The notes beneath the pieces are model-generated. The model ran no database searches, was not told the DNA's origin, and saw nothing but the letters and a program-made list of their open reading frames with translations. A stretch of DNA of 64,000 bases from Takakia lepidozioides (taxonomy: Eukaryota; Plantae; Bryophyta), in contig CM060731.1 in the NCBI GenBank assembly GCA_030704615.1, positions 8,370,001 to 8,434,000 on the forward strand, given 5' to 3'. Positions 2,405-59,639 of the stretch are shown here, one piece after another. Each line of letters opens with the position of its first letter. Position 1 is the first letter of the stretch. The position numbers and the translations under genes are program-made.

Positions 2405-4092
2405 GTATTATTTTAATTTATTTAAAATATATATATATAGTCGTATACCTGACATTTTTAGTAAAGAGTCCCCCCCCCCCAATGTTGAAGACATTGTTTA
2501 CTGATATTTTAATCTTTATTTTGAAAAATATTTAGACGTCAACTTAGAGTTTACAACCGTTCGTCTATATACCACATTATAGTAAAAGATGATACCCCAC
2601 AAATCCAAAATTGATCAAATGACCCTTGTCAAACCAAGATGGTAAAAATGCCAAACCAGATATCAATGTCAAATCGAGGTAACTCACTAGAAACAAACAA
2701 TGGAGGCTAGTACGTTCAACCAGACAAGATATTAATACTTAAAATGTCGGATGAAATTGTTTATGTTACCACTCCCCAAGCAATTGGTGGGGGCGCTTCG
2801 ATTTCTGATGAGTTTTTTGGTATATCATGTCTCCTCTACAAAATGCAATCAGCTTGTACTTGAGCAATGATGGGGCTTGAGGTGGTGTTACTGATAGAGG
2901 CAAAGGGCGAGCGACACATTTGTATGTTCCCAGGTTGAAAATGAGCAACCCCTCACCAACTCATCACTTCTGATCTCACGATAATATGCAGTGTTGAGCG
3001 GGTCCTAGTCTGGACCGGTATACCCTGTTGGTCCTTTTCTAGGGTATCAAAGTATATAGATCTGACACAAGGGTACATGTGGTACCCGGGCTAGACCCGG
3101 CGGGGGCCACGTGAGTTTCATACCCCCGGTAGGGCTGATGTAGGCTCCGACCCGGACCCGAACCCGTAGAATTTCAAGGTCCCCGGGTCCTCTTGTGATC
3201 CACTGTCACAGGTGTACGTGTAGGTTTCTTTTTTTTTTCTTTTTTTTTAGAGAACAGGGGCCAAAGGCCCTAAGAACTTTATTTAGAATTATTTGAAGGG
3301 AAAAACTTAAACCCTTACATGCCCGAAGGTAGGTGTCTTGTTCTAATCCAAATATTAACATACATGTTTGAGAGTCTCACACTTGAAGTGGATATACATC
3401 TCCATCCACTGCTCTGCTCTACTGCGTCTATTCCAGTGTTGGCCGGTTATAAGAATTTTACATATCCGCCAGTTAAGGTTACTTCAATATTTTTGGGATG
3501 GCCACACTCCATGGTTATGTATAAGGATAAAAAATTTATTTTAGTATATCCACCGGTTATCTATTCTACAAAATTCTTCAAATTTAGATGGTTATGAATA
3601 GGACGGTTAGAGGTGTCCTAAAATTGGCGGATATATATGCAATTGGCGGTTACATATAATATATTGAATGGGCACTTGTATTTCTCAATGATTTTCTTTA
3701 AAAATAATCAATTCACACATGACATTCCTAGGGCCTCCAGGGTGCAGCAGCTTGGCCATGAGCTATGTCACAGGGAAACCCTCTGTCACCACCTCAGATG
3801 GTGACAACTTGCAAATGTATCTCCTTCACCATTCCACTTTGGTACAAAACAAGGTAAAAGTAGAGCAGATTTATGACATATGCTTGTACGACATCTGCAT
3901 TCAAATCTGCACTTTTCCCACATGCTCTAGATGCTGACGTAGCTTGCAAATGTCTTCAATGCCTTCAATGCAGCTGCGTTGTGTGAGCAGGAACGTGTCT
4001 TCTACATAACTGTAACCGCTCTAGGGGGTCAAAACGCCTTATGAATCCAGGTATACAATGTAGTGCTAACCTTAATATAGGATACATATACA

Positions 4093-4276
4093 ACCAGCAT
4101 GTAGCCCAGTGGTAATGGGCACATACCACGTTGGATGTGGTTGTGGGTTCAAACCACAGTCTGGTGTGTCATGAAGGTGTCCACCTTTTAGCTGGAAGGC
4201 AGTAGCCTTTATGGTGAAGTGACACCATAAGTTATGCTTCATTCGGAAGGCGTCATACTTCTAGGGTACATATACA
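4093..4276 (+). mobile_element. tRNA-derived SINE-like element
   Basis: A box tagcccagtgg (4102), D arm gccc/gggc, B box ggttcaaacc (4146) in T stem tgtgg/ccaca, acceptor accag/ctggt, non-canonical anticodon arm. A ~100-nt body ends in (tacata)n. tacatataca flanks both sides (4083-4092, 4267-4276). Confidence 0.6.
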
Positions 4277-5128
4277 TATACATACTCACCTCCCAACCGC
4301 TGGTTATCTATTTGCTCTACTTTGCAAAATACCCTGTGTGTGGTTATGTATACCTACTAACCGGGGTGGTAACCGACTCACTAACCGGGGTAGAGTGTTA
4401 TACCCGGCCAACACTGGTCTATTCCCACCTCCCTATTGGTGGCTCCTACCATCCCTATTTCCTTGACCTTCAAACGAGTTACGTGCTAGGATAATTATCC
4501 CTATAAGTATGTTTGTATTTTTTAATTTTTATATTTAATGAAACATAACAATATTATTTCAAAGTCTTGAAAGAACTATTGAGAACCGAGATGCACACGG
4601 TACCCAGCAGTCCATGGTGAAGGGAATTCTAGCTCCACAACCCCTTTTTTATTTCTTCTTCCCATATATTCTTTAAAAAACAATTGTAACACAAAGGCAA
4701 AGAAGTACCCCTATTTTTTTTATAGATATAATTTTGATAATACCACTGTGACAACCCTTTGTTAAAATTAAATATTTTAAAATCTTTATTTTCAAGAGTT
4801 TATTGGACTCTATGTTTTATCGCACATGGTTTGAAATTCATGCCGAGTGACTTCCCCTAGGCTATGTTGCACCCTCGATGAAAATGCCATACATGGACCG
4901 GGGAAAAAAAATCCAAAACGTGAGACCCGCTAAACATTGCTAAGCACCTTCTATCGACCAAACATGGTAAAAAAGAAAAGTTTTATGGAAATCCGATGGA
5001 AAAATCTAATCAGCTTTATTCTTTGGATGAAAACACGATGATATGAATGAATAGTATCCATGTGGAACGCGATCGACAAGTCGTGGAGCGCACCTTGTGG
5101 AACTGGTTGTACATATAGACTCGCGCAA

Positions 5129-5440
5129 TGTCAAGTTATTTTACCACTAGTGTGAAGTTAGCTAGGAAATAGCTAGCTTTTATATATTGACATTTGGGAT
5201 TGACCCAAGTGTCAATCTAGGGGCCAATACATGTTTGGGCACCTGGCATTGTTATCTTCACGGCAGATCGCGGTGGGCTCATCTTTCTCGAGTTGAGCCT
5301 CACCGCGTCTAGCTATGGCGCCGTAGTGTGGATTCCCCATGGCGTGCACTTGGCTCCACTTAATATATGAGTGATGTTTTCATGTGCGAGTGTGTGAGTT
5401 TGAGAGAGCTTGTATGCTTGTATTATTCTTTTCCTTATCA
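5129..5440 (+). repeat. Left terminal repeat B1 (3' part of the LTR only)
   Basis: 312 bp, from tgtcaag to ttccttatca. Matches 15593-15909 with about 14 substitutions and one 5-bp indel by manual count. Confidence 0.95.
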
Positions 5441-5452
5441 CTCGAGAAAGAT
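5441..5452 (+). promoter_or_regulatory. Self-complementary primer-binding site (Tf1-like self-priming)
   Basis: ctcgagaaagat lies directly after the LTR-terminal CA and is the exact reverse complement of atctttctcgag at 5281-5292. There is no TGG-starting tRNA PBS. Confidence 0.75.
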
Positions 5453-8175
5453 CAGCTCGAGTCTGTGAGTGCCAGGTTCGAGTTAGTTGTAGCACTTGTG
5501 TTTTCAGATCATGAGAAGCGGTTCAACCTAGAGTGCAGGGAGCCGTGCATGAGCCTATCCAAAGCGGATAGAGTGCAAAGGCAAACATGTTGCAGGTTTG
5601 CCATGGATAGAGAGGCGGGTAGCCTATGTTGAAGAGCGGCGTTGCATAGCTCAACGCTATGGCAACCAAGTTTGGGCTTCTAGTGTGAAGCGGAGGAGAT
5701 GCTGGCCATGAGTGGACGAACTGGTGGTCGTCTTCTTCAGCTGCAGGCCGAGTTAAGGAGCTGCTGAAATGTGGGTTGCGCATGGGAAGTTAGCATGTTG
5801 CAGGTTGGAGATGATATGATCAGCTCCAAGTATGTGCCAGAAACGAGTTGTTGCGGATAGATGAGGAGCAGTCGAATGGCGGAGCTGCGAGGGGATGCAT
5901 CGCAACCTATTGGGAGCTGCAGCTCCAACCTCATGAAGAGGTATGAGTGAAGAGAGGGGGCTGGTCCCTCTTGTGTGCAAATCAGTGCACTTGTGAAGTA
6001 TTGCTTGAGTTGGAAGTTTCAATCTGAAACTCTAGCACGGCGAGGGCTCTTGGAGTGGCAAGAGCGGGGCTGGAAGGTTAGCAGTGAGGCGTCCTAGAGC
6101 CAGGGAATGTGCAGTAGAACTGCAGGTACACCAAGTTTATCAAGGTGTGTATTTTCAGATTCACTTTTGTGAGTTTCGTGGAGAAATGGAGCTTGTTGGG
6201 CAACATATAGCTTGCTTGTTGAGTTGGGGGCACTTCTAGTGGGCCGTGAGAGCTCAGGAGTGCAGGGCGACGGGGCTGATGGCTTCACAGAAGCCATAGC
6301 TCAGCGGCAGCAGATGCAGGAGCAAACCCCAGCTCGGGGAGAGCTCGGGAACGCGTGGGAATGTCGGGAACGCCAGGAACGCCTCGGGAACGCATGGGAA
6401 CTCGTTGGGAGTTCCAGGGAACGCAAGGAATAGTGGCCGTGATGGACCGTTGGGGCGGTATCACGAGATACCACGAGCCCAGATCGTGATGGTTGACCGT
6501 GACCGTTGACCTTGACCGTTGGAAGCCGTTGTGCGGACACAACGGGTTGGCACGGTGACCAGATCGTGGGAATGGCGGGCCGTGAAGGCTCATGGGAGTG
6601 GTACTACGGGGTATCACTGGGCAGCCCGTGGCCAACGAGCGCCTAGGGCGGGCCGTGAGGAGTAGTGGCGGTTGGAGCCACGGAAGGCCGCGAACAGTTA
6701 GAGTGAAAAATAAAAATAAATAAAATAAAATAAATCTTTTTTCACTCGTTTCGTGGGACCTTGATGGGGAGGCTGGGCTCTGAAGAACAACGGTTTTGAG
6801 CTAGCTGATCCGGCAGAAAAGTCGGAATTGCCTCCCTGTTATGTTTTAACAAAAGGGATTACTTCCCTACAAGTAATCTTTTCGGGTTTTCAGCCCAATT
6901 CTTAATTATGGGGAAGACCAGCCTGCAGGTAATTCCTTTGGACAGAATGTTGTTGGGGCCTATATGTACCTCTATTTGCTCCATTTTTGAACCTTCAGTG
7001 AACGGTGTGGTTTCCTGAGGTGGTTCCATTCGGAGGAATGGCTGGTGGACGTAAGGAGGCACTGGCGGACCCTGTGGAGGCTTGCATGGGGCCTTGGAGG
7101 CCAAGTTTCATGAGTTCGTGGAGGGCGGTTTGAGGAGTGTCTACAGGATGCTCTCATGGTCATGCAAATGAGAGAAGAGAGGAAAAAAGAGGGTGTTGGG
7201 ATGAGAGCGTGCTTGGGATAGGCATTGCTTTAGCTTCTCTTCCTCGTAGCTTTCCACCTTCTCTATAGGGCGAGACCTTTCTGTAGGTGGAGGCAAGAGT
7301 CAGTCCGGGTTTGGGCTAGGTTGCAGGAGCGACACTGTGGAGTTGTTTTTGGTGTGGGGGAGTTGTTGTTTTCATTCTTGTGTTTGGATCCCCTCCACAC
7401 CCGCATGCTTGATTGTGCGCCATGCTAGTTTTGTGTGGGCGCTTGATTTTATAGGTGGTGGACTCGGGCTTGATCGCCGATCCCACCCTAGAGCATGCTG
7501 TCGATGGTGAGGCTGGGGTGATGACTAGTCAGACCATCTTTGTTTCTCCTATGGTGAGGTTGGAGGTGATGACCAGCCAACCATAGGAGTACCTGCGGTG
7601 GATGCAGGTGCAGGTACAGGCTATGTTAGGAACCTAGCATTCCAAACCATAAGCCGCATCAGGTTCTCTACCCGGTTACCTTATGGAGAGGGGGTTAGAG
7701 ACAGGTTCATGACCGGTTGAGTGCCACTTTGTCAACACGGAGGTGCCACTAATTGCTGGGGAAAGTGCCGGTACGAGCACTAACGATATTAGCGAGTATA
7801 CGAGACGAGGTGTGCGGTTTAGGCCACCTTCACCTCCTGTGTCTTCTACGGAAGGTTCTGATTCGGATTGTGAATCAGAAGGACTCACACCGGCGGTGCA
7901 AGTTGTTTCCTTGCCATTGTTGTGGGACACGATGGAGGAGATGTATGGAGCCACCAAGGGGCGACGAAGGTACTCTGGGGCGGTGGGCACCATTGAGTTG
8001 GATGATTTTATCTAAGAGTTTGATAGTTGGTGTGACTTGCAGCAAATGCGCAATCCACAACTGTTTACGCCTTTCATGGCATGGAAAGGGCTGTTTCAGC
8101 ACCTTGAGGGGCCGCCCATGGTTGATTACCATGAGTTTAGGGGGGGGGCACGATGCTGAGATCAAGGAGTGAAGG

Positions 8176-9945
8176 ATGTACTGGTCACCCGACTATGTCT
8201 CCATCACTAGAGGCACTAGAGGCACAAGGGCAGCAGCCACACCGGCAGCTTCACCAGCAGCAGCAGCTACAACAATAGCTTCCACGAGCACTAGTGAGAC
8301 TAGTGGTACAACAACTACAACGTCCACCCAAGCTATTGCTGCACCAGCACCAGTGGCAGTGTCTGCATTCAACCCTGTTGTGGAGTTCTTCAAAGAGTTG
8401 AGAATGAACTACCAAGGGGTGAGGACAGAGAAGTTGAGGAGCTTGCAAGAGTTCCAACGGAAGCCTATTCAGAGCTTGAGGGAGGCTTTCACTCGCGTTA
8501 CGGAGGCTCAGGCAGTCCAGTTCTGGTACAAGATATTGGACAAGGAGCTGAAGGGAAGGGTGCGAGATGCAACTCTCCTACAAGCGGCCCAACCCACCTT
8601 AGCAAATGTGTTTTTGCTGGTAGAGTGGATAGAACTCAACATGGTGGAGGAATGAGTGGTCATGGTGGGATTTGCTAAGGAGGCACCACGGGGTAGTGGT
8701 GCTCCTAGCCAGCCACTACCTCAACGTGCTCAAGGCAGCAAGGGGGCTCTGGTGAAGCCCAGGGAAGGGCAGAGAGGACCTCAGATGCAGGGGTCTCTCC
8801 CTTCATTTGCTGGCCAACAACGGACGGATGTGGTGTGTTGGACATGTGGAGGACCCCATGTCAAGAAGGATTGCCCAGAGGGAGGCAATGATTTGGCACC
8901 GGCACAGCCTGCACAGGTGCAGTGTGGGCATTGTGGTAGGTACGGGCATGGAGAGGCCCAGTGCTATGGTTTGCACCCTGAGTTGCGCCCAGGCCAGTTC
9001 CAAGGGAACAATGGTGGTCGGGGGCAAGGTGGAGCAGCCCAGAGAGGACGAGGTGCAGGCCAAAGGCAAGCTCAACATGGCCAAGGACGCGGAGGTCAGG
9101 GTGGTGACCAAGGCATGGCCAACCGGCTTCAGCAGCTAGAGCAGAGGCTCGCTGCCATGGCCACAGCTCAGGTGATACCGGCTCCAAGGCTGGATGGTCC
9201 ACCTCCTGCTCCTGAAGGAGGAGACTTAGGAGGCATGGGATTCATGTGCGGGGCAGCACTACCACTAGTAAGGGGTGTCATTACCACTACCACTATGGGT
9301 GGGGCACCACTACCACTGGTGAGGGGTGCCACTACCACTACCACTTTGGGTGGGGCACCACTACCACTAGTGCCGGGCAGTACTACCACTACCACTATGT
9401 GCGGGGCAGGACTACCACTAGTGCAAGTGGAGTCAGTTGCGGCAGTGACTGGAGGAGCAGCACGAGTTCCTGAGCCACGGGGTGCGGAGGTGTAGTTGGA
9501 TCCACAGCGTGGGGAGGTAAGCCGTTAGGCCAGGCTTCCTCAGTCATTCACATTGGCGGAGACAGTGTCGACGCCGTCCATGGGACCTAGTTCCCGCCCG
9601 ACTGTTACTGAGGCGGAGGTTACTATGCCATTGGTGAGAGCTACACGGGCAGCACCACTACCTAGTGTTGCCAAGGCTACGGTAGCTAGTGTGCTGCTGG
9701 GGGCGGCCACAGCTGTGTGCCAGGCTCCATTGTTCTCGACTACCATGATTGCGACGCCGGGGGTAAGACCAGCTGAGGTGTTCAGGCTGGCAGCGACACT
9801 CTGTGAGAGTGTGGAGGTTACTTCATCTTCTGCGGAGATAGTGGGAGGTGTAGTGCCGGAGGGATCCTCGGATGTGAGGGGTCAAGACTGCCATGGCGGC
9901 GCCATGGCAAGCTGCAGCTGCCAGGTTGATGGAGCTGTCAGCTAG
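8176..9945 (+). pseudogene. gag: Gag with two CCHC zinc knuckles (interrupted by stops)
   Basis: One frame across ORFs 8176, 8656 and 9553. Gag-core-like EKLRSLQEFQRKPIQSLREAFTR, knuckles CWTCGGPHVKKDC and CGHCGRYGHGEAQC, and an RGG/Q-rich region. Confidence 0.85.
9244..9424 (+). repeat. In-frame 51-bp tandem repeat (~3.5 copies, 17 aa)
   Basis: Units start at 9244, 9295, 9346 and 9397: MCGAALPLVRGVITTTT / MGGAPLPLVRGATTTTT / LGGAPLPLVPGSTTTTT / MCGAGLPLV. Confidence 0.9.
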
Positions 9946-10405
9946 GCCAGCCATTGAGCGCGCCATGGTGACACCTGGAGTTGTCATGTTAGACAACCAG
10001 GATGGCATTTTCTGTTTGAGTGGACCGGCAGGCAAGAGGTACCGGCCACTGCGGGTCTTGTTGGACTCGGGAGCTCAGCCATTGATGCTGGGCAGAGCTG
10101 CTATTGCAGGCTTGGGCCTCACGGAGGTGGATATAGAGCCGTGTCTTTTCCAGATACAGACATCTCTGGGAGGATCAGAGCAGGCTCGGGGCATGACACG
10201 ACGTGAGTTGGCTATCAGACTACAGCCGGATCATCCTACAGATGGCTCAGTGATGAGAGCCAAGGCCATTGTGACAGACGCGGTCTCGTACGATGTCCTT
10301 GTTGGTGGGGCAGTGTTGTACCCCATGGGCTTCACCCTGGATTTTTGGGAGGAGTCAGCTTTATATAGGCATGGATGGCAGTCAGGGGAGGGCCGGCTTG
10401 TGTAG
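9893..10405 (+). pseudogene. Retropepsin aspartic protease domain of Pol
   Basis: RVLLDSGAQPLM catalytic D-S-G motif and the C-terminal YDVLVG motif. Confidence 0.9.
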
Positions 10406-10780
10406 CTCCCGGTGACATTCATAGGAGGAGTTGCGGTTGCCCAACGAGGCAAGATGTCACTGGCAGCATTCACAACTGCAGTGACTTGGCCTGGAGAGTT
10501 GTTGGATGGCAACACTCATTCAGAGGATGTGTCACCTCCGGGAGAGCATGATGACATGTATGGTATGGCGGAGTTGCCTGCCATGGTTGCTCACACTCCA
10601 TTGTGGGGCTCGAGCAAGGATTTGCAGCGGGTTGCTGATTGTCGTGTGTAACAAGCCTGGGTAGAGGCTTTTGTACCGTCAGGAGAGGACGACAGTGCGG
10701 GGATTGCACCAGGTCCACCTCAATTGTCACCATTGGACACCACACCGATCATGTGGCAGTGTCCGGATGAAGGCATTTGC

Positions 10781-11740
10781 CTTCTGGACTTGTTTGGCGG
10801 GATCAGCATCGGATTGGCTGCTGTTCTACAGGCAGGTGTACGGGTACGGCGTTACCTGTATGTAGAGAGGGATGAGACTGCACGACGCGTCTCCCTACGC
10901 CATGTTGCTCAGTCGGTGCAGCAGTACCCTGAGTTGTTGCCGGTGTCTGCAGTTCGTGGATATCAGCAGGCCTTGCCAGGAGACATTTCGTTGCTGGGGG
11001 CGCAGGATTTGGAGTGGGTTGGCTCCATTGATTTGGTAGTGGCAGGTTGGCCCTGCCAAGGGTATTCATCAGCCGGGCATGGCAATGGATTGCGAGACTC
11101 GAGGTCGGGTCTACTTTGGGAGATGGTGCGGGTTTTGTGCCACTTACAGCTTCATCAAGTTGTATCTCCACAATACATCTTGGAGAATGTGCCACTGATG
11201 GACAATTTTCGGGCCAAGGTGATGGCCAGTGTGCATCAAGTCCGGTCGTGGCTTGGGTCAGCAGTGTTGCTGGATGCAGCTGTAGTGGGGTCACGGGCTC
11301 ATCGTCCACAGTTATGGTGGACTAACTTGATGCCACCCGCACTGCTTAAACGTGCATTTGATGGGGTGTAGTGGCCAGCATACCTCACAGTGGATAGCAT
11401 TTTGGACACAGGGAGGCAGTCTTAGCGTGTGAGACACGATGACCGTTCGCCTTTGGCAGTGGTCAACAAGGTGGGTCGACCACGAGCAGCACTATCTACA
11501 CTGTTCAGCTTCCCAGGATTGCATGCTTTCCGGGATAGCGGACCTGGCCTCCTGTGGGATGCTCAGTTGCAGCAGTTAGTGGAGCCTAATGCCGACGAGC
11601 GAGAGCGGGCTATGGGTTTTTCCACTGGGACCACAACGGTGTCTTCTCTTTCTAAGGCATCACGTCGTCAAGTGTTGGGGCAAGCGATGGATCTAAATTG
11701 CTTGACCTGGATTATCAGCTTGGCTATGGCTGAGCAACGT
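10781..11740 (+). pseudogene. DNMT3-like C5 cytosine DNA methyltransferase domain inside Pol
   Basis: Motif I LLDLFGGIS, II YLYVERD, IV IDLVVAGWPCQ (PC at 11051-11056), VI YILENV (11183), VIII RAHRPQLWWTNL (DNMT3 AHRARYFWGNL-like), IX ERERAMGF (11597), X RRQVLGQAMD (11663). Same frame as PR and the RT N-terminus. In-frame TAG stops at 11369 and 11423. Confidence 0.93.
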
Positions 11741-12129: not shown

Positions 12130-12959
12130 ACGACGTATATGGCAGTTCCTGAGGGCTTACAAGAATTGCTTTGCCTTCAGTTTGAAGGATTTGGGAGCAC
12201 TGAAGGGTCAGGAGATTCGTATTGAGTTGGCCACAGACACGCCAATCTTTCGGAGACCCTATAGATATAGTGACATGGAGAGGTCTTTGATTCAGATGAG
12301 GACAAGATCTCTAGGAGGCTGGTTTGGTGGAGCTCTCTGGTGGAGAGTATGCTTCAACCACGGTGATGCCAGCCAAGAAGGATGTCTATGGCAATTGGAC
12401 GGAGAGACGTATGTGCGGTGATTACCGGCCTGTAAATGGTTAGACCAAGTCCGATAAGTATGCCATGCCCACACCGGAGGAGATCTTTGATGCCATTGGG
12501 CATGCCAAGGTCTTTAGCACTTTGGACTTGCGGTCCGGATATCACCAGTTGCCGATCAAGGAGGCGGACAAGCAGAAGACGACATTCTGGGGGATCAATG
12601 AGCACGGGAAGGATTGCCTATATCAGTGGCGATTCTTACCATTCGGGCTTCAGAACGCTCCTGCAGAGTTCCAGAGAGTCATGGACAGGATTCTAGTAGG
12701 GGTAGACTTTGCTCGGTGCTACATAGATGACATCATTATCTTTAGTGCTACGGTGGAGGAGCACGAGAGACACCTTCAGGTGGTGTTTGAGCGCTTGAGA
12801 GCGCACGGATTGAAATTACATCCGGGGAAGTGCAAGTTCTTCCACAACCAGATTGAGTATCTGGGCCACATGATATATCCTGGAGGATTGGGGGTGCAGC
12901 AGACTAAGGTAGAGGCCATCGCACAGATTCCACGTCCCACGAATGTGAGCCGAGTTTGA
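12130..12959 (+). pseudogene. Gypsy-type reverse transcriptase domain
   Basis: PIFRRPYR, RRMCGDYR, FSTLDLRSGYHQ, LPFGLQNAPAEFQR, YIDDIII, KCKF..YLGH. Frameshift near 12305. Confidence 0.97.
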
Positions 12960-12965
12960 GCTTTC

Positions 12966-13589
12966 ATGGGGTTGGCAAACTACTATAGACGGTTTGTCAA
13001 GGGATTTAGTGCTATTGCAAAGGCTCTAACCAAGCTGACCAAGATAGACCAGGAGTGGCAGGGGGAAGATGAGCAAGAGCGAGCTTTTCCGGAGCTCAAG
13101 GCGAGGTTGACGTCGGCGCCGATCTTGAGACGACCTATCAGGGGGCGTCCTTTTCAGGTGCATACAGATTGGAGCATGTTGGGGCTTGGAGCGGTGCTCA
13201 CACAGGTGGATGATGAGGGAAGAGAGTTCGTAGTGGCTTATGCTAGCCGCTCGAACAACGCTGCAGAGTCTAAGTATAGCTCATATGAGGGGGAGTGCTT
13301 AGCTGCAGTGTGGGCCGTGGCACACTTAAGGTGCTATCTATACGGCAATCTCTTCACCCTTGTCACGGATCACCAGCCTCTAAAGTGGTTGATGGAGTCA
13401 GACAAGCTTACGGGGAAGCTTGCACGGTGGGCACTTATACTCCAAGAGTATGACTTTCAGGTTGTGCATCGACCGGGTTTGGTCAATAGGGATGCAGATG
13501 GATTGAGTCGCAATCCATGCACGAGCCAACATGATGACACTAGAGCTCGGTGGCATGGTGAGACAGACGAGGAGATGGTGACGGGATGA
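12966..13589 (+). pseudogene. RT connection and RNase H domain
   Basis: VHTDWS..GLGAVL, YSSYEGECLAAVWA, LVTDHQPL, NRDADGLSR. Confidence 0.95.
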
Positions 13590-13844: not shown

Positions 13845-14900
13845 GTGTGGGAGGATGGTCGGGTGAGGATCGTGCCTCACCCAACACAGCGTGCACGGTT
13901 AGTGCGGCATGCCCATGAGGAGTTGGGGCATTTTGGAGTGCGACGCACTCATAGTTTACTGCAAGGGCAGTATTGGTGGCGTGGTATGCACACAGAGGTG
14001 CAACAGTTCGTGGGTGCGTGCTTCATTTAACGCCCCTACACCACAGTTTCATCCTTTACCCATCATGGGATTGGGCTACAGGTGGAGGGCCTTTGCCACT
14101 GACGATGCGTCACCACATATATGTGTTGGTGATGGTGGAGCACTTCTCCAAGTGGATTGAGTTGGTTCCATTGCCTGACAAGGCTAGTGAGGGGGCTGCG
14201 TATGCATTCCTGGATCGTGTGCTTAGCCGATTCGGTGCTCCAGCTGAGGTACTCACGGACCAAGGGAGAGAGTTCTTGGGGGAATTTCAGGCTTTGTGTG
14301 ATAAAACCTTGATAGACCACCGTACCACTTCTCGGGATCATCCTGAGACCGATGGCTTGGCAGATAGAGTGGTGCAGACGGTGAAGAGGGGTTTGCACAA
14401 GTATGGCTTGCAAAAGGGACACCTAGGAGATTGGGATCTTCAGGTACCTTGGTTAGCCATGGGCTACAGGTTCAGCAAGCAAGCATCACTTGCCTCCTTC
14501 TCACCATATTTCCTTCTCTTTGGCCAAGAGCCGGATTTGCCTGCATCTATTCGCAGGGAGGCTGCAATAGTCCTCAACCTTGATGATCGGGATGTGTGGA
14601 CACAAGCATGTGCCCAGCGAGTCATGCCTATGGCTTTTGAGAATCTTGCTATTGCCCAACACCAAGACACATTGAGGTATGCCACTATACGTGGAGGGGG
14701 ATATCGGCCAAGTGTTCGGCGTTTCCACCCTGGGGACTATGTGTATCTGCAGCAGACAGTGCCTACGACCTTGGATGTCACAGCAGGACGTGTGATTCTA
14801 AGGGTCAGGGAGGTGTTACCTTCAGGAGTGTTGATTCTGGAGGGTCGAGATGGCATGGTATGGAAGGATCATGTGTGCAATTGTGCGCCATGTCACCTTC
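13845..14900 (+). pseudogene. DDE integrase (HHCC zinc domain, core, C-terminal domain)
   Basis: HAHEELGHFG..YWWRGM..FVGAC (partly deleted), VMVEHFSKWIE, VLTDQGREF, HPETDGLADRVVQTVK, FSPYFLLFG, FHPGDYVYL. Confidence 0.93.
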
Positions 14901-14956
14901 TACATGTGGATGGGAGGATAGATCCCAACCTTGCAGTGGTACCTGCAGGATTGCGT

Positions 14957-15081
14957 TGCATGCTATGTGGGCATGCTCGTGGTGCCGCCACTATGCTGGT
15001 GTGTGATCGATGCTCAAGAGGTTGGCACATGGGATGCTTGACACCACCTCTTGAGAGGGATCCTGATTATGTCCACCTTGC
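14957..15081 (+). pseudogene. PHD finger at the integrase C-terminus
   Basis: CMLC..MLVCDRCSRGWHMGCLTPPL, completed after a small deletion or frameshift by *LCPPC (15064-15081; TGA probably from TGG). Together this gives a C4HC3 pattern. Confidence 0.88.
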
Positions 15082-15339
15082 TTGGGATAGTGGTAGTGGA
15101 TATGACTAGTGGCAGCTCACAAGACATGGGAGGCCAAGCTCATAGGAGTCAATACCCAAGATCTCAGGCTCAAGTTCACAGGTTGCAAGACGGCGACTAA
15201 TGATTGGGCAACTCTTGTACCCGGCCTCTTGATCTATTGAGTTTGAGTGTAGTAGGGACAATGGTGGAGGACCTAGTGAGGCTATGACCACTATTACATC
15301 TTGTGGCTACCTGGACTTAGAGGGACCTAAGCGCCAGCT

Positions 15340-15350
15340 AGGGGGGCGAT
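15340..15350 (+). promoter_or_regulatory. Polypurine tract
   Basis: aggggggcgat immediately before the TG that starts the LTR. Confidence 0.7.
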
Positions 15351-15909
15351 TGTGATGGACTAGTGGCTGCACTAGTGGTGGCTAGTGGCAGCCTAGTGGT
15401 TGGACTAGTGGCAGCACTAGTGGTGGCTAGTGGCAGCCTAATGGTTGACTAGTGGCTGCACTAGTGGTGACTAGTGGTTGTCTAGTGGCAGCCTAGTGGT
15501 GCACTAGTGATAGACTAGTGTTTGGTGTACACATATGTTGTGTGGTTTGGATAGCGATGTAGTTGTGTAGCGATATGTATGCGCACGACAGCTGTCAAGC
15601 TATTTTACCACTAGTGTGAAGTTAGCTAGGAAATAGCTAGCTTTTATATATTGACATTTGAGATTGACCCAAGTGTCAATCCAGGGGCCAATACATGTTT
15701 GGGCACCTGACGTTGTTATCTTCACGGCAGATCGCGGTGGGCTCATCTTTCTCGAGTTGAGCCTCACCGCGTTTAGCTTAGGCGCTGTAGTGTGGATTCT
15801 CCATGGCGTGGGGTGCACTTGGCTCGACTTAATATATGAGTGATGTTTTCATGTGCGAGTGTGAGAGTTTGAGAGAGCTTGTATACTTGTATCATTCTTT
15901 TCCTTATCA
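15351..15909 (+). repeat. Complete LTR (A+B, TG...CA, 559 bp)
   Basis: Starts tgtgat after the PPT and ends ttatca. A is a ctagtgg array. The A/B boundary is gaca-gc-tgtc at 15587-15596. Confidence 0.9.
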
Positions 15910-15910
15910 T

Positions 15911-16197
15911 TGTGATGGACTGGTGGCAGCCTAGTGATGGACTAGTGGCTGCACTAGTGGTGACTAGTGACAGCCTAGTGGTGGACTAGTGGCTGCACTA
16001 GTGGTTGGACTAGTGGCTGCACTAGTGGTGGCTAGTGGCAGCCTAGTGGTTGGACTAGTGGCTGCACATAGTGGTGACTAGTGGTTGTCTAGTGGCAGCC
16101 TAGTGGTGCACTAGTGATAGACTAGTGTTTGGTGTGCACATATGTTGTGTGGTTTGGACATCGATGTAGTTGTGTAGCGATATGTATGCGCACGACA
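15911..16197 (+). repeat. Right terminal repeat A2 (5' part of the LTR only)
   Basis: Matches 15351-15590 with ~47 bp of extra array units and ends at gcgcacgaca. Confidence 0.93.
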
Positions 16198-21415: not shown

Positions 21416-23994
21416 ATGGCGTACCAGTACCAGTACCCGCCGGCCGGGAGTGGACAGTGGAGCTCGGGCATCTGCGGATGTTTTCAGGATTTTGAATCGT
21501 GTAAGTGAACTGAGGGGTTTCCCTCCTCTCTCGCTGTCTCTCTCCATACATTTCATAGTTAGGAGTAAGAAAAGAAGCTTCCCATGGGCAACTGCAGATA
21601 CCACATTCTTGTTTCTCTATATCCGCAATGCATTTGGACTTCACTTGTGGATCGGAGCTTCTGGGTTCTTACAACCCCCCACCTTCTAGTTCCTTCGCCC
21701 TCTGGCTAGTAGCTGCGTGCAGGGAGAAAACTGCGATCGTGAATATATGTGGTTTGAGGATCGCATGTCTTTGAATGGTGCCACCGTATGGAGTGTCGAG
21801 CTATTTCTCGGAACCATTCTGCCGCACCATGAATATCCCGTCCACCCTGGAAACTCAAAACTGAAGAGTGTTGAGTGGACTTCGCAACCATCGGCCGACC
21901 AATACATGAAACGAGAAATGAACATGTACAAATGGTTTCTACAGATTACAGAATGAGAGATTTTAAGCACAGTTTAATGTTACGAATCTCTTCCAGAAAC
22001 AAGATTGATAGAGCTAGTGTAGATTGCTGATATCCCCTACCCATTGCGGATCGTGTGCCCTCTCCCTTCACCAGTTTAGAGTACCTTGTACCACTGACAG
22101 TGACAACTCCTAGTAGTGTGACGTGTTCAGCAACCGCAGAAAGCACTTTGCATGGGACTTGGGCAATTTTGGGTAGTACACACCAAAGTTCCTGAATTAG
22201 GGAAAGAATGGGGAAAGAAACCTGGACTTGCCATCCAGGGTAGGGGTTAAATTTGAAAGACATCTTAAGGCGTGTAGCTGCCCTGAAGCTGATGGGAAAC
22301 CAAAAAATTAGCCTTTTTCTTAAACATGGAACCCGATATTTAGACTTTGTTAGCAATTTCGTCAATGAGCCAAGCTTTGGTGCTGCTTTGGGTTATGCAA
22401 GGAACTCCCAATAAATGGCTGACTCCTCTTTCATTAGCATACAAGCCTGTCACAAATGCAGCTCCTCGTTCTTTCACAATTGAAGTGGAATCTGACAAGA
22501 TGTTAGAGGGTTCATATGGTAGAACTACTCTTCTTATGTTATATTTGTATGAGGTTTAAAGGGCGTTGTTTTGAATTACCCTTGGAATGATGGATAATTT
22601 ATTAGCATGCCTTTTGCATGGCAACATTGCAACAGGCTTCTTCCTTCTTTCTGCAGTGCGGTTTGCAGTTATGCTGGTATATGAAGGTCAAAATGGCTCT
22701 TCAAGGCCATGGAAGGGTGTCAGGCTTACCCCTGATCCATAGGTGAATTGATCCGCCAACGCAGTTCTAAATGGATTGGAACCCACGGGAATTCTCCCCT
22801 AGTACATTTGATTCCCAAATGAGTGACTCCTTGTTGTTTGGCTCAACTCAATATCCTCTGAATGGGTGGGCAGGTATGTGTGCTTGGTGCTGTCCATGCG
22901 TACTTGTTGGACAAATTGCGGAAATCGTTGACCAAGGCGCCACTTGTACGTGCTCTCCGTCTCTTCTCCTTGCTCTCTTGTTCCTCTGGCTCATTTTCAC
23001 AACCCAGAATTGCAGGCCAATGTCGACCTAAATTTGTTATAATTATCTGTTGTATTTTAACCATCTGGTCTTTCACCAACATTTTGTGGGCATTTACTAC
23101 TTGACTGTATCCATGACATTTGGCACTCCATGCACCACCATTCACCACATTTGCCAAACTTCTCTTATTTCACCTACATACCTTGGATCATGCATGTGAT
23201 GACTTGTGTGGCCAGTCTCCATTCCTTACAAGAGTGCACATGGTGTGGGGTGCCTGAAACAGCATGTGGAAGTGCTGGAGCCATCTATGCACTGCTGACT
23301 ATCTTCACAGGCTGTGGATGTCTGTATTCATGTGGCTTCCGAGCCAAGCTGCGCCATAAGTACGGCCTTCCTTTGCAACCATGTGGCGATGTCTGCACTG
23401 AATGGTGCTGCACATGCTGCTCCCTTGCCCAACAATATAGGGAGCTCAACTCACGTGGCATTAATCCAGTCCTTGGTATGTTTACAGGCTCTACTGGCTC
23501 TACTTCCCTGTTTCTTGTTGTTCTCAACTCCTGTGGTGTCAATCCGGTCCTTGGTATAAGGGATAAAGGAGCAAGAGCCCCTGTTAATATTGAAGAGTCG
23601 AGAAGGAACTTGAGCGGACATAGACCAAGATGGTTGTGATTGTTTCCTAGTCAGCCACTTATTTCTTTGCATACATATGTTTTATGTCTGATAGCTCAGG
23701 ATTTGGGGAAGTTCCATTAGGTTGAAGGAATGAAGGCCTAGACTTTTCTTATTCTTTTCCCTCCACTAGATGTGTAACTGGGTTGACAAGTGGACCAGTG
23801 GTCCCTGGAGTACTGTACAAATATTACATTCATAGAAAATTTAGCCAGATCATGCATCTACCTCACGGTTCCATCTTTTCTGTGTGTGGTTTGCCATTGA
23901 CCCCAATGATAACCTTTTGTATTATGCAGGATATGAGGCCAATAAAGCTACATACGAGACCCAGGCACCACCTATGCAAAAAATGTATGGATGA
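21416..23994 (+). CDS. PLAC8-domain protein (Plant Cadmium Resistance / Cell Number Regulator, fw2.2-like), 144 aa, 4 exons
   Basis: Exons 21416-21500, 22874-22945, 23263-23475 and 23930-23994, all GT-AG, 435 nt in total. Motifs WSSGICGCFQD, WCCPCVLVGQIAEIVDQG, RAKLRHKYGL, CCSLAQQYREL. Confidence 0.93.
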
Positions 23995-28906: not shown

Positions 28907-30452
28907 TTTTTTGTTTTTTTTTGTTTTTTTAGTTCACATTTTTTTTTTTTTTTTTTTTCTTTTGAAGAGGGGCGGAGGCCTCAGAATTTTATAAATAAAG
29001 GACATGAAAGTCCGAAAAATACAATAGGGCGAAATAACGGCGATGAACATAACAGAAAGAGATCACTACGAGAGAACCAAAAGGGAAAAATAACCTCTTT
29101 CAAGGGTGCCCTGGAGGCTGATCCAGGAAAGCTCTGCTTCGTGACCAACCAACCAAAGAGGGGGAAAAAAAGCAAACAGAACGATCTGTCGCCCCATAGA
29201 AGAGTCTCTAAGAGAGGCTAGGCCTTCAAGCCGTGGAATCGCAGATTAAAACTAGCATAGAAGCTAAGAAGCCACTGGCTGCAGTAGCAAAGAGGTGGTA
29301 ATGCTAGGGCAGAACGAAGAGTAATATAACCAGCCTGCTGCATCAGTAGTTCCCGCGGTTCTTTTTGTAAGTAACAAAAGAGAGGTGAGTCCTAGATCTG
29401 GTGGATCGAAGAGAATGGTGGTGCCTCCAATTTATTTCTAAATCGTCCTTCTCAACAAGTGAAGGTTGGGAGCTAAAGGAACTCCCAGCTTGGAGGGATG
29501 GAGTCCTTCCAGTGAATTCCAGTCCCTGCTGAATCTCTAGTGTAGATGGTGGCTCCTTTTCCCCAAGTGTCGTCGAATTTGGTGAGTAGCTGAGTCCCCT
29601 TTCTGCCCTCACACCTGCGAAGAGCTATTCCCAACACCCGCCACGCCCTACGGGCCTCAGACAACAGGTCTGAGTGAACCAGACAAAGAATCACTCTTAC
29701 ACTGCAAGGCCTCCCAACAAAGACATTGGCACATCTGCCCACAATTTACCCTGCAAGAAATTTAAAAACAGAATGGAAGGGCAAGGCATTGGAAGCTGTT
29801 TCCATTGGCTATAGAAAGCCAGGACCTGCACCCAAACAACAGCAACAAGAGGGCATTCAAACAGACAGTGTTCTAATGATTCCGAAGCCTGTAGCCCACA
29901 AGAAGTACATAACATGGAGCCATCCGAGATGTGAGCTTTGACAGGAAGGATTGTATTGACCAATTTCCATAAGAAACCAGTGATTTTAGAAGCCTTGTCC
30001 TTCTTCCAGACGTCACCCCAGATAACAAAGATCACAAAGGGACAGTCAGAAATGTAAGACCATTTCAAGGTCCATTTGGCATCCAGAGAGGAGGTTTTTT
30101 TGAGAAGGGAAGACCCCAGCTTTACCAAATATTTAAAAAAGGGGGTGCTCTTTCTATCATCCCAATTCCATTCGACTGGATCGAATTGAAGGAGTGAAAC
30201 TGGAGCTCGAAGGAACCATACAAGGAAGGGGTTTGTATGTCTACCCTGATCCAGCGAAGGATTTACCTCCCCCGTCGCCATGCAAATTACACGGATGGCA
30301 TAGCATTTGATCTCTTCAAGTTCACACAGAAGAGGGAAGGTTAGGGCACCCGAATCCTTAACCTGGAAACTCCATCCTTGGATTTGGTTTCTCTCCTTGG
30401 AGTTCTTTTCATTTTTCGTTTCAATTTCATATGACAAAATTGTGTGAAAGGT
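28907..30452 (-). mobile_element. 5'-truncated L1-type LINE (ORF2 C-terminus, 3'UTR, poly(A))
   Basis: ORF 29697-30455 carries a zf-RVT signature FLWKLV..LP..CTSCG..ESLEHCLFECP..VW. A poly(T) tract at 28907-28963 is the tail on the minus strand. Confidence 0.85.
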
Positions 30453-30723
30453 CAAAAATCTGTCAACCTGTCATGTGAAAGGCATTTTCTTAAAGTTGTA
30501 TGTCACAGTGGAAGTCAAAAAAAAAATTTAACCTGTCACAAAAAAGGTAGGGCTACCTGTCCAAAACATCACTAAAGTCTACTAGGTAGTGATCTCTTAA
30601 ATAGTCTCTACACAGGCTTCCCTGAAATTAAACAAGCCATGTGAGGTTGTCCTATGTAAGTTAGACCTTGTTGCCCTCAGGTTGACCGGAAGCTCAACGA
30701 GGTCAATTGGAGCTCGGCTGGGT

Positions 30724-36654: not shown

Positions 36655-37233
36655 AACAGAAAAGGCTGTGGTTGTTTGTCATCGTCCACCGCATCATTGG
36701 ATTTTTCTCCACAAGGGTCGAATTTGTGTAGTAGCCACGACGTGGATAGTGTCTCCATCGATGGCAGTTGGTTACCAATTTTCTGCGAAAAATTGTTGGA
36801 GGCCTCTCACAAGCTCTGTTGCTTCTTTTTGATAGTCTACGGATGGATGTCATAGCTTCGATTAATCCGGCTCATGATCTGAGTTGTTGGCGGATACTTT
36901 GACAAGGGAAAATTAACAGTCGAAGATTAATGGAGAGAAGATGTCCAACAGAAAAGGCTGTGGTTGTTTGTCATCGTCCACCGCATCATTGGATTTTTCT
37001 TGACAAGGGTCGAATTTGTGTAGTAGCCACGACGTGGATAGTGTCTCCATCGATGGCAGTTGGTTACCAATTTTCTGCAAAAAATTGTTGGAGGCCTCTC
37101 ACAAGCTCTGTTGCTTCTTTTTGATAGTCTACGGATGGATGTCATAGCTTCGATTAATCCGGCTCATGATCTGAGTTGTTGGCGGATACTTTGACAAGGG
37201 AAAATTAACAGTAGAAGATTAATGGAGAGAAGA
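36655..37233. repeat. Recent tandem duplication, 292-bp period
   Basis: 36655-36941 and 36947-37233 differ at only a few positions. Confidence 0.95.
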
Positions 37234-39452: not shown

Positions 39453-42400
39453 ATGGAGTCAAGGAGTTATCCCTATTTCGATCCGGAGTATGAGACAAGC
39501 GGCTTCCGATCCAACCCTCCACGGTACGCACAGCTATGATGCATCGAGGGTGTGAGCATGTGTTTCAGACAATTGGTAGTATGCATACACTGGGTATCTG
39601 GAAATAGAGCAGGAACGGGGCAAAACGTAGTCGGGCAGAGAGTACATCCGGTGTAGGCAGTCGAGCAGCTCCTCACTCTCCTTATCGTCCTCATCAATTA
39701 TGTCTTGCCTCAAACATGCGACTTCAAGGAGAGTGCCTGGGATTGGGGGAACAATTTTCCTCCGTTCCTGGTCAAACTTCCTGCTGGTCATTCTCATTTC
39801 TAGTTGGGTGCGCGGAAAGAAGATACGGAGAGAGCGGAACTCATAACCACGCGATATAAACTTTTGCTGTAATGTCGTGCCCTCGAGGGATTAGTAACTG
39901 GAAGGATGCCAAGCCTGCCCGAGGTCGTGGTGGGGTTGAAATCTACCAGGACACGACTAGATGCCCTACCTTTAGTTCATTCTTCCAGCGAGATAGTGAC
40001 ACTCCCCTTGCCGGTTTTGGTTTTTCAGCCCACCATGGTACGAGATCTAGCTGGCACGACCAAATATCTAGTTGCAAGAAGTTGAGTGTTGGTTGTTACT
40101 GCTGTTTTGGACCGTGTGCTAGGAAGAGTGAGGTTGCTCTAGGCGAGCAAGAGAGAAAGATAGAGAGAGAGAGACACAGACGTGTGTAAGCCTTAGTCCG
40201 TTCAGCTGTGCCCTACTCACTCGCTCTGCATGTTCTGGGGCTCTTCTGTCGTCTCGTTCCCTTGGCGTATATATGTTTAGTTATTGAGTAATACTATGGT
40301 CTAACGCCAATCGAACCTGCTCTGACTGTGCAGGATTGTAATAGACAACGGATCCTATGAAGACGCTACTCTCGTGAAGGTAACACTCTCTTCCTATTCC
40401 TGAACCGCTGTAGCTATGAACGACTCAGAAGGTTGAGTTTCAAGTGTTGGGCAGTATAATGGCTACAAGGTGGTGCAGCAATCTCATTTTCTGCCTCCAT
40501 GTTGTGATGCAGGTAGACAGCGCCAACATTCACGGGATTTTGCTTGACGTGGTGCAAGTTCTGTCAGATCTCGAGCTGATCATCTCAAAAGCGCATATTT
40601 CATATGATGTGGGATGGTTCATGGATGGTGAGGTCTTGTTGCCGAGCTTTTGTTGTGAGAAGTCTTTAGGCCATTCTCTGATTGTTCGTGATTGTAGATG
40701 TGTGCCTCCTTAATTTTTGCATCTCGAGTATGTTGCAGGCTTGGAGGAATTCCCTTGAGTTTTAAGTTTTTGTTTTCTTTTGGCTGCAGTTTTCCATGTC
40801 ACAGATCAGTGCGGCAGGAAAATCAATGACGAATCAACCATTTGCTACATTCAACAGGTTAGTTTCCTCCACGCCATTTGTAGACTAGATTGCTCTCTGT
40901 GTTCTAATGCAGCTCAGGCTTTGCACTTCCAAGTTTCCCATATGTCCAACAACGACTAACTCTAGGTGTTTTTCTTGCCAGACATTGGGAGCCAAGAAAA
41001 AACCATCATCCTCAAATGATCTATTGAAGTGCCCAGGAAGGTCTGTTGGGGTGAAATCTGTTGCTGAACACACAATCATAGAGCTTACAGGAAAAGACAG
41101 ACCAGGGCTTCTGTCAGAGGTATCAGCAGTACTTGCACACCTGAAGTGCAATGTGTATGCTGCGGAGGTTTGGACCCACAACTTGAGAGTGGCATGTGTG
41201 GTTTATGTCACCGATGAAGAAACTGGTGGGCCAGTAAATGACCTGAAGAAACTGGATCGCATTCGAGAACTTCTAAGCAAAGTGATGGGGGCCACAATGA
41301 ACTTGGCCGATGGAATAACACACACAGAGAGACGACTGCATCAGATGATGTTTGCTGACAGAGACTATGAAGGGAGTGACCAACCAGCCATGCCAAGGCT
41401 GCCAAACAACAAGGGGAAGCCCATCATTACGGTGCACAACTGTAGTGAGAGAGGCTACTCACTCATCAACGTTCAGTGTGCTGATCGACCAAAGCTGCTT
41501 TTTGACACTGTTTGTACTTTGACAGATATGCAATATGTGGTCTTCCACGCCACGGTTGACACTTCCGGTTCTGATGCTTTTCAGGCACTCATATACACCC
41601 TTCTCTCATGGGTCTGCTATGATTTGATTAGTAAGTCATTATGTGGTTCAACAGCTTTTGTCATACTCGATGCAATAACAAGTACCAGATGAAGATAGAG
41701 TACATCAGTCTAAGTGTGGCATTGGAGATATTTCTTGATTATCTGAGCTTTGATCACAGTGACCATCTCTCTGGCATCTCTATAGGGATCTTCACTGTAA
41801 GCCAGGGCCTTTGAGATGAGTGGAGGGACCTGTCAACCTCTTCAGGGGTTCTGATTGATTGTTGAAGTTTCTCACCTGGTAGAATGCCTTCTTGCAGGAA
41901 TATTATGTTCGCCAAATGGATGGTTGCACTCTAGATGCAGATGCCGAGGAAAGAGTAAAGAAGTGCCTAGAGGCAGCGATTGAAAGGAGATCTCCTGAGG
42001 TACTGCCTTTTGCTCATCTTGATATAGTACTGGCAAGCCAAACTGGGTAGTAATGTCATCTTTTGACTGGTGTTAAGGTAGCAGTCAGGATAGCACAGGA
42101 AAGAGCGCCTTTAAGTGCAATGTCAAAGTAACCTTTCTGTACTTAAGGACCATGAAGTATTCCAAAGCAAGAAAGTGGACAACTGAGAATCTGCAACCAT
42201 ACTTACATATCCTCCTTCTTGATGGTTGTAGGGTCTCAGATTGGAGCTCTGCACCAGTGACAGGGTGGGGCTTTTGTCAGATGTGACCCGCATCTTTCGG
42301 GAGAATGGTCTTTCAGTCACAAGAGCTGATGTCACCACACAGGGAGACAAGGCTGTCAATGTATTCTATGTCACAGATGCCTCAGGGAATCCTGTGGACA

Positions 42401-58320: not shown

Positions 58321-59639
58321 TACTTACGAATCCAAGAGGGTGCTAGGCCGTGGAGAGTAGCTTGTTGGTAAAGTGATTGCGAGATTTTGGGTTCGATTGT
58401 CGATGGGAGCCTAGTGTAACCCAAGGTACTGTCACCCCAGTTGGTCTAACCTCGGAGTAGTGTTATTTGTGTCTTGTGTGACTTCTCTTAACCTCTTGAG
58501 GACCACGAGGCCCATTTAGGGCCGCGGCCTCCCACTCCAATCCCTCTACAGTTGTTGGATGTTCATGAAATCGAACGGTGAAAGTTTAGAAGTGATGCAA
58601 AAAGGATTGCGCCAAGCTCTGGAGCTTGCAAGCATCTTGAGTTTGAGCTCCAAGAGTATGAAAGCTGTAGAAGAGATATCCTACGATTGATGAAGAAGGC
58701 TGGTAGAGACAACCTCTCTTCTTCAATATTCAAAACTGCGCAGGAAACGCATTTCTTGCATAATTATCGCCTTTTTCCTGTTTTCTCTTAGAAGATGAGC
58801 TCTTACTCCTCATCACCACTATTCCACTTGAAACCTTCAACTTCTTCTGTCTTTTCATAGTTTCCTACCTCTTCAGATCTAGAAAAGAGATTTTCGTGCG
58901 TTATCACTATGTTTTCATCCACAAGGCTGGCGGCCGACATGAGAAATCCCATGGCTTCAATTCATGGCCAAGATGTATGATGTCCATCGTGGGTAAAGCT
59001 CAATATGGTTGGCGGTTGGAAGGAAGTTGCGACTGCGACTGCGACTGCACCTTCCTAGTGTAAAGACATGTTTCACTATCTACTTTGGCTCCAACATATG
59101 ACTATGGTGGCTATTGTCTTTACAATTTATTTTTGAATATGCACACCAACTCTAAAGTTGGAGGCATGTACGAGACAATCTTGCGAATGGATCTACCAGG
59201 GTATGAAACCATTATATGCGCGCTATCTTCTTCCCGCTCACATCGGCCTCGAGCCCCTCCACCCTCCTCCGCTCCTTCTTCACTCCCTTCTTCACTCCCA
59301 TGCTTCACACTGTTCCGTTGCATTGTCTCTCTGAACTCTATAGCTTCAAGTTGTTTTCCTTCCTTGCTTTTGGCTTAGGCATTTTAAGGGTTTATGTTAC
59401 CTGCATGTGGTTCTGTGAGTCCTTTGTATTTCTGATGAACGCTACCTACTTTAGTACCTTGTTTTTTGATTACATATGGATTGCATTTCTGTAGTTGCAC
59501 TTGCACTTGCCAGCTACTATCTAGCTACTGCATTTAGGGTTTTCATTTGAATCTCACTCGACCTTCTCATTTCGTAGATTCGGGATCCTCATGCATTTCA
59601 GCTTGGTGAAGGCGACATCAGCCCTGCTAACCCATTTGA

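Follow-up and report, generated by a model that had tools for sequence, protein, structure and literature searches.

Predicted self-priming and a candidate integration route in a split-repeat, Dnmt3-type Gypsy retrotransposon of Takakia lepidozioides

We analyzed a 64,000-nt stretch of the Takakia lepidozioides genome (assembly GCA_030704615.1, contig CM060731.1, positions 8,370,001 to 8,434,000 of the forward strand; hereafter the window, numbered from its first letter). The retrotransposon examined in it is a Ty3/gypsy long terminal repeat (LTR) element of the Dnmt3 type, with split repeats in the order A-internal-B-A-B (Table 1). A 12-nt match between its primer-binding site (PBS) and a segment within repeat A is probably a Tf1-type self-primer, by which the start of the element's own RNA would prime reverse transcription in place of a host tRNA. 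When the primer and the element ends are considered jointly, we lean, with a little more confidence than doubt, toward a streptophyte Gypsy lineage that self-primes without a tRNA, joins its cDNA ends and has an integrase that cuts a CA-NN-TG palindrome inside the LTR. On this joint reading, held just as cautiously, the end-joined circle or concatemer would be the normal substrate of the DDE integrase, and the primer might in addition be freed from longer RNAs via a hairpin switch. Self-priming is already known from Tf1/sushi, Tcn1 and TAR elements; what the 12-nt match contributes is a further lineage, with covariation of unusual clarity. The integration route is of greater consequence.

Primer and PBS complementarity in the window and its relatives

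An earlier, sequence-only reading of this DNA had proposed that the PBS is complementary to a segment inside the LTR and that the primer 3' end abuts the terminal CA, as in Tf1. We found the complementarity to be exact over 12 nt, with 5441-5452 (CTCGAGAAAGAT) the reverse complement of 5281-5292 (ATCTTTCTCGAG), and 13 nt long when the pair A5440:T5293 is included. The geometry was equally borne out, as the PBS directly follows the CA (5439-5440) that closes repeat A1. Among 20,000 dinucleotide-shuffled versions of repeat A, none contained the 12-mer, and when 3000-10000 was scanned for a CA followed by an upstream complement of at least 11 nt, this site was the single hit. The same primer 12-mer was found at 15745-15756 in A2. 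Among contigs of the same organism as the window (sets X1, X2 and X5, for which percentages refer to summed contig depth), one variant list held none in the primer or PBS among the best 40 of 69 rows, and a second contig variant list held one, at 15747, among the best 40 of 70 rows.

Other parts of that reading required revision. What it took for the whole LTR was only the 312-bp A half of a split A...B-A-B arrangement, and the split-repeat, Dnmt3-type nature of the element had been overlooked. The terminal CA at 5440 would be a cDNA end and not an integrase-processed end, a distinction that had also been missed. It was noted separately that the PBS can fold on itself (5440-5462, 7-bp stem, -11.6 kcal/mol), a fold that was neither significant (z -0.5) nor conserved, with A at 5461 in approximately 58% of X1 depth. 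TGA at 5294-5296 can pair with the terminal TCA at 5438-5440 if T5293 bulges, an option that could shape the cut site and that also exists in the largest related family, L034 and L087.

Covariation between primer and PBS was then assessed across families from a metagenome sample of 80 loci, 51 of which were self-compared, the remainder being short. Besides the window (ATCTTTCTCGAG/CTCGAGAAAGAT), six further primer/PBS types were read, from L087 (ATCTTTGTCAAG/CTTGACAAAGAT), L034 (ATTCTTGTCAAG/CTTGACAAGAAT), L008 (AGTTCTTTGAG/CTCAAAGAACT), L031 (AGTTCTTCGAA/TTCGAAGAACT), L079 (ACTTTTGGTGATT/AATCACCAAAAGT) and L062 (ATTTTCTAGATTT/AAATCCAGAAAAT), the primers of L031 and L062 being taken from the A2 copy. 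Over seven types and 11 positions, 76 of 77 cells were Watson-Crick pairs, with two to four pair types at each of the 11 positions and with compensatory changes; in L087, for example, two primer bases depart from those of the window, each matched by a compensating change in its PBS. When the family assignments were permuted, only the true one among 5040 reached 76 of 77 (mean 40), a figure that overstates independence, since the seven types are kin-related and the pairs were picked by searching for a match. Within the largest family, 15 of the 20 loci with a readable PBS paired at 10 or more of 11 positions, by alignment position, with an A copy of the same locus; the five misses comprised deleted primers (L028, L054), decayed PBSs (L059, L060) and L039 (9 of 11). 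The core match spans 11-13 nt across types, its first base is always A, and the primer is contiguous in all seven, so that an intron-built primer is unnecessary. Complement scans of L004, L018, L045, L048, L058 and L065 gave no credible A/PBS pair, and an unconstrained 11-nt complement scan gave chance hits in AT-rich flanks.

As a prediction, tRNA-independent self-priming in the Tf1 geometry is strongly supported by this covariation of the PBS with a segment of the 5' repeat. The element also has an RNase H domain, which by analogy with Tf1 would perform the primer-releasing cleavage. Priming by a host tRNA, a half-tRNA or another small RNA, with the internal match incidental or a DNA-level palindrome, is barely credible: each of the seven differing PBSs matches its own repeat, none of the seven begins with TGG, whereas 8 of 18 distant Gypsy loci examined in the same way have a repeat followed by TGG within 2 nt, and Rfam returned no match in 5100-5700. 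In favor of such a primer it can be said that the tRNA search covered the window and the loci rather than the host tRNA set; ARAGORN made two doubtful intron-type calls there. Only slightly less improbable is a primer drawn from the 3' copy, with the RNA 3' end, or A2 cut after 15756, pairing with the PBS. The identical 12-mer in A2 would allow this, and it would account for the copying, in L039, of sequence that extends from the primer upstream as far as the B/A site. However, the hairpin is intact in A2 (z -4.37) and buries most of the primer in relatives, and a cut in A2 would remove the R region needed for the first strand transfer under the established LTR mechanism (PMC7175516; the publications cited here are represented by excerpts).

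Similar arrangements are described elsewhere. Tf1, Tf2, Tj1 and the Tf1/sushi group, which includes plant Tcn1 chromoviruses, resemble the present element in an 11-13-nt complement of the PBS in the 5' repeat and in the Ty3/gypsy pol order, and their PBS is without tRNA match (PMC7175516, PMC4600332, PMC6317226); the core match in Tf1 is 11 nt (PMC7175516). Among plant elements, 12% are predicted to self-prime, within Tcn1 and TAR, and the TAR lineage (Houba, Osr-1), while alike in its predicted plant self-priming, belongs to another superfamily, Ty1/copia, and has ordinary LTRs (PMC6317226). Unlike the Tf1/sushi and Tcn1 elements, the present one has no chromodomain match after the integrase, in the window or in any of the nine relatives scanned, and carries a PHD finger and a DNA methyltransferase instead; it differs from Tf1/sushi further in its split repeats and in a strong hairpin around the primer that uses upstream sequence.

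RNA start and the hairpin around the primer

In Tf1, the first RNA bases pair with the PBS and an RNase H cut makes the primer (PMC7175516, PMC4600332, in the parts consulted). By the same scheme, transcription of the Takakia element would start at about A5281, the first 12 bases of the RNA would anneal to 5441-5452, and RNase H cleavage after G5292 would leave a primer for minus-strand DNA at the CA of 5440, while a hairpin in the 3' copy would hide the second primer copy from the PBS. The sequence-only reading had left two options, this classical start at about 5281 or an upstream start with the primer displayed in a loop or pseudoknot; the classical start is predicted to fit better. Of 26 A copies in the largest family, 23 have a TATA-like word 29 to 31 nt before the first A of the primer (14 TATAAA, 9 weaker; two off-target rows dropped), and L034, L079 and L087 have one at -29. 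With the RNA starting at the primer, primer:PBS pairing was predicted at 0.77-0.99 in 9 of 10 loci by a folding program without pseudoknots; with 60 nt more upstream RNA it was 0.00 in 7 of 10, and in the window 10 nt sufficed to lower it from 0.96 to 0.03. TATA spacing and folding, both predictions, thus lean toward the primer being the 5' end of the mRNA.

The primer had also been described as nearly the loop of a stem. The stem itself was confirmed, with 16 Watson-Crick pairs and two one-base bulges between 5265-5281 and 5294-5310; the fold of 5255-5320 reached -34.3 kcal/mol (z -6.26; 0 of 200 shuffles equally good), and the second copy reported at 15729-15774 was present as well. The open loop was not, since three extra pairs can close within the 12 nt, so that the minimum-energy fold pairs 7 of the 12 primer bases. 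Among relatives, 10 of 11 primer bases were stem-paired in three loci of one family and 8 of 12 in L034 and L087. A primer-spanning hairpin recurred, scoring z at or below -2.5 in 5 of the 8 segments (perfect 12-bp stems in L034 and L087), its 5' arm always at or upstream of the primer's first base. As the primer lies mostly in the 3' arm in these relatives, sequestration is conserved and loop display is not. Because the upstream arm would be transcribed only in the 3' copy, the hairpin would form only there, and it likely masks the duplicate primer in the RNA's 3' copy. Such masking would offer a testable explanation of why the duplicate 3' primer does not interfere in a self-priming RNA.

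Several observations weigh against the classical start and the masking hairpin. The window's own word at -29, TTATCTT, is a poor TATA box, and the folding program's lack of pseudoknots bears on the pairing predictions, which moreover survive upstream extension in 3 of 10 loci (L008 and L021, which are one insertion, and L079). The hairpin is weak in L008 (z -1.3), L079 (-0.7) and L031 (+0.1), and its outer stem varies without compensation (5308 is T>C in 73% of X1 depth). In the window the PBS match runs seven further positions into the upstream arm, where 5453 is G, and paired, in 56%, 31% and 56% of depth in X1, X2 and X5; the extended duplex reaches -27.7 kcal/mol and the hairpin -31.9. Extensions of approximately 21 nt in L008 and 15 nt in L034 were also noted. 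Finally, L039 holds an inverted copy of A(1-179) at 3700-3878, whose junction with the end of A2 falls on the 3' base of the primer and which runs back to the start of A, with GACA before the flank; a copy of 179 nt beginning exactly at the primer's 3' end would require a long primer.

These observations keep alive a variant with an upstream RNA start, a hairpin that sequesters the primer and an extended PBS that invades the upstream arm of that hairpin; a cut after the primer would free its 3' end on a longer 5' fragment. We consider this variant rather unlikely, even though the extended duplex comes within about 4 kcal/mol of the hairpin and L039 looks as if a long attached primer had been copied. 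L031, L079 and L087 show no PBS extension, and the extensions elsewhere may just as well stem from occasional transcripts with an upstream start that were copied into the PBS. The TATA-like words keep their spacing from the primer's first A, pairing is lost in 7 of 10 loci, and true loop display is not conserved, most relatives having the bulk of the primer within the stem. The L039 structure comes from a single metagenome contig in which a misjoin at a 20-nt match is possible, and its inverted copy resembles its own A2 (94.3%) no more closely than it does other copies (up to 96.6%, full length). The start at about 5281 is preferred. A start driven from a TATATA farther upstream, at about 5182, is disfavored: the word is missing from most copies, with T>C breaking it in 75% of X1 contig depth. 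Contigs of sets X7 and X9, guessed to be RNA, were few and fell on repeat A with ends scattered over approximately 15778-15856, and were uninformative on start, end and strand.

Split repeats and the route of integration

The element begins with TGTC and ends with GACA between the flanks GCAA and ACAA, and the B1/A2 border reads GACA-GC-TGTC. The left border at 5129 recurs with unlike flanks in other contigs of this organism (24 in X1, 20 in X2; agreement 0.47 and 0.41), and 42 contigs in X1 end at 15590, again with unlike flanks (agreement 0.37). The largest metagenome family contained 12 loci ending in B-A-B and 16 ending in B alone, counts that include the same insertion in different assemblies several times. 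The 12 loci with both ends comprised eight perfect 4-bp duplications, one matching at three of four bases and three unreadable; two further types also carried duplications, L062 (4/4) and L079 (3/4). The A2/B2 join consists of the last base of A and the first base after the polypurine tract, and was flush in the window and in 11 of 12 loci. In the remaining case (L011:10830-10860) the terminal base is lost and a 17-nt filler and a polypurine-tract remnant are present, which reads as a scar of the kind that end-joining leaves. A ends in TG rather than CA in L062, L079 and L080, indicating that the end of A is not under integrase constraint, unlike the element ends.

A coherent route can be proposed for these structures. 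Standard reverse transcription, primed at the end of A and with the tract preceding B, would yield a B-A-internal-B-A cDNA. This would be an ordinary two-LTR molecule whose LTR is B+A; the self-primer would fix its right end and the polypurine tract its left. The cDNA ends would then join, as a circle or a template-jump concatemer, and cleavage by the DDE integrase at the GACA-NN-TGTC palindrome lying within one LTR, with loss of the two central bases, would give A-internal-B-A-B. TGTC...GACA ends and 4-bp duplications arising from an internal GACA-NN-TGTC point to this cut, and integration by cleavage inside the LTR of end-joined cDNA is likely.

It is possible, though we would not expect it, that the split ends reflect a one-off integration accident, or that A-B-A-B was copied from RNA running into B2, without end-joining in each cycle. 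Joined DNA is here modeled from integrated copies, with no extrachromosomal DNA observed, and the 16 A-internal-B loci could come from a one-LTR circle, a double-site cut of linear cDNA or B1-B2 recombination. An accident is nevertheless excluded by the 12 B-A-B loci together with three further types that have the same palindrome or layout; other copies of the same organism share the 5129 and 15590 borders in unlike flanks (agreement 0.37-0.47), and the layout is published for KnitGypsy-Dnmt3 (PMC5890265, in the part consulted). Copying of A-B-A-B meets the difficulty that B2 lies off the copied path, given priming at the PBS and the tract before B1, and the L011 filler means that free ends were joined at least once. 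Two contigs reading internal-B-A-PBS (L087, L034) were not counted as one-LTR circles, because collapsed repeat assembly gives the same reading. It was noted that L087 (1-9285), a plant-type clade member on a terminally redundant contig, is binned in a cyanobacterial genome; many other prokaryote bins contain eukaryotic Gypsy contigs.

Two-LTR circles are usually treated as dead ends, and the routine use of closed DNA by a DDE retro-integrase is a long-standing question. The DDE integrase of this lineage appears to use closed DNA routinely, at a site inside the LTR. The nearest precedent is the foamy-virus integrase, which cleaves closed DNA at a palindrome of the CA-NN-TG type; in that virus the cut falls on the LTR-LTR junction and the route is accessory (excerpts of PMC1180852), whereas here the putative site lies inside the LTR, the junction stays uncut, and the route is apparently the usual one. 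Integration at such a site would explain the DIRS-like repeats of KnitGypsy-Dnmt3, which were noted but left unexplained. Relatives are annotated in Marchantia polymorpha, so the question can be tested in a model plant.

PAT, TOC1 and Ngaro are split-direct-repeat retrotransposons with a tyrosine recombinase, thought to integrate via a circle. Elements of that kind share the A-coding-B-A-B layout, as described for SymbioDIRS-Dnmt3 (PMC5890265, excerpt). The element studied here differs from DIRS, Ngaro and PAT in its DDE integrase, TG...CA ends, 4-bp duplications, PBS and polypurine tract, and no tyrosine recombinase match was found in 13 window frames or nine relatives. KnitGypsy-Dnmt3 of Klebsormidium nitens is alike in its C5 methyltransferase within a Gypsy pol and in its DIRS-like A-coding-B-A-B repeats; the likeness is drawn from its description, and the present element falls, in a quick tree, in a land-plant clade with liverwort proteins (support 99). 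The KnitGypsy-Dnmt3 section of PMC5890265 is silent on priming, target duplications and integration, and the words "priming" and "target site" are absent from its three supplements. Our literature search, with Repbase, the REXdb supplements and subscription journals outside it, returned no description of self-priming in Gypsy-Dnmt3 elements, nor of this integration route for them; the excerpts of 10.64898/2026.05.21.726589 and PMC12344493 mention streptophyte elements only in passing.

Element content, relationships and neighboring features

Table 1. Features of the Takakia element, in window coordinates.
Feature	Position	Strand	Remarks
Left target-site duplication GCAA; right copy differs by one transition (ACAA)	5125..5128	+	4-bp duplications in relatives
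Repeat A1: proximal U3, R, U5; left element end TGTC; terminal CA; 312 bp	5129..5440	+	
Weak TATA-like word TTATCTT, -29 from the primer's first A; putative function	5252..5258	+	clear TATA words at same offset in relatives
Hairpin 5' arm, upstream of putative start; in best model transcribed only in 3' copy	5265..5281	+	
Putative self-primer, 12 nt; putative start A5281; putative RNase H cut after G5292	5281..5292	+	start and cut by Tf1 analogy (PMC7175516, excerpt)
Hairpin 3' arm	5294..5310	+	
PBS, directly after terminal CA	5441..5452	+	
Partial extension of PBS match into 5' arm	5453..5459	+	mismatch, three Watson-Crick, GU, Watson-Crick, GU
gag-like frames, broken, with CCHC-like motifs	8173..9495	+	no Pfam match
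Aspartic-protease-like frame	9878..10405	+	LLDSGA motif by eye; no Pfam match
C5 cytosine DNA methyltransferase domain	10652..11371	+	PF00145, E 1.1e-12
Reverse transcriptase and RNase H, stop-interrupted	12444..13589	+	PF00078, PF17917
DDE-type integrase core, then PHD finger	13955..15109	+	PF00665, PF00628; 72% identity to P0011
Polypurine tract	15340..15349	+	same motif precedes B in 11 loci
Repeat B1: distal U3, 22-nt tandem units, terminal GACA	15350..15590	+	
Palindrome GACA-GC-TGTC at B1/A2 border; putative integrase site	15587..15596	.	
Repeat A2: 94% to A1; hairpin 15729-15774 with second primer copy 15745-15756 inside	15593..15909	+	
Repeat B2: flush with CA of A2; right element end GACA	15910..16197	+	many copies end here, flanks varied
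Right target-site duplication ACAA	16198..16201	+	

The Ty3/gypsy assignment follows from the pol order protease, reverse transcriptase (RT), RNase H and DDE integrase, found in the window and relatives, together with a PBS after the 5' repeat, a polypurine tract before the 3' repeat, TG...CA ends and a 4-bp duplication. Pfam protease matches were obtained in the intact relatives P0061 and P0063 and not in the corresponding window frame, and the best solved relative of protein P0008 was Ty3 Gag-Pol. Two complete collinear LTRs flanking the internal region were not found, the loci being A-internal-B-A-B or A-internal-B. The methyltransferase in pol, which Marchantia and Closterium relatives also carry, and the DIRS-like A-B-A-B repeats combined with Gypsy domains liken the element to Gypsy-Dnmt3. 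As a practical matter, LTR finders would call repeat A alone and misplace the right end of the element.

The closest proteins were 73-83% identical and included Calypogeia and Marchantia records, with Closterium and Klebsormidium records at approximately 50%. A quick tree of 60 RT fragments united the window, the liverwort proteins and the metagenome loci in the supported land-plant clade; two Klebsormidium RTs fell outside it, neither of which is known to be KnitGypsy-Dnmt3. Among viral contigs, a single-protein scan was empty, and alignment scans returned only relatives of 30-44%.

Several minor features were also noted. Within repeat B (15350-15520 and 15910-16110), the 22-nt tandem units are CTAGTGG-rich and missing from the repeat B of related families, and B2 is about two units longer than B1. 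The gag-like frame contains three 51-nt repeats (9245-9423) that encode Thr-rich GGAPLPLV units. Elsewhere in the window, frames matched PLAC8 (23061-23639), zf-RVT (LINE-like; 29697-30470), ACT/ACR (40889-41692) and a PiggyBac-like transposase (59578-60156). A 292-bp tandem duplication (99%) lies at 36655-37233, and degenerate repeat clusters occupy 56761-58135 and 60622-62127, the latter with a strong GC skew (0.32).

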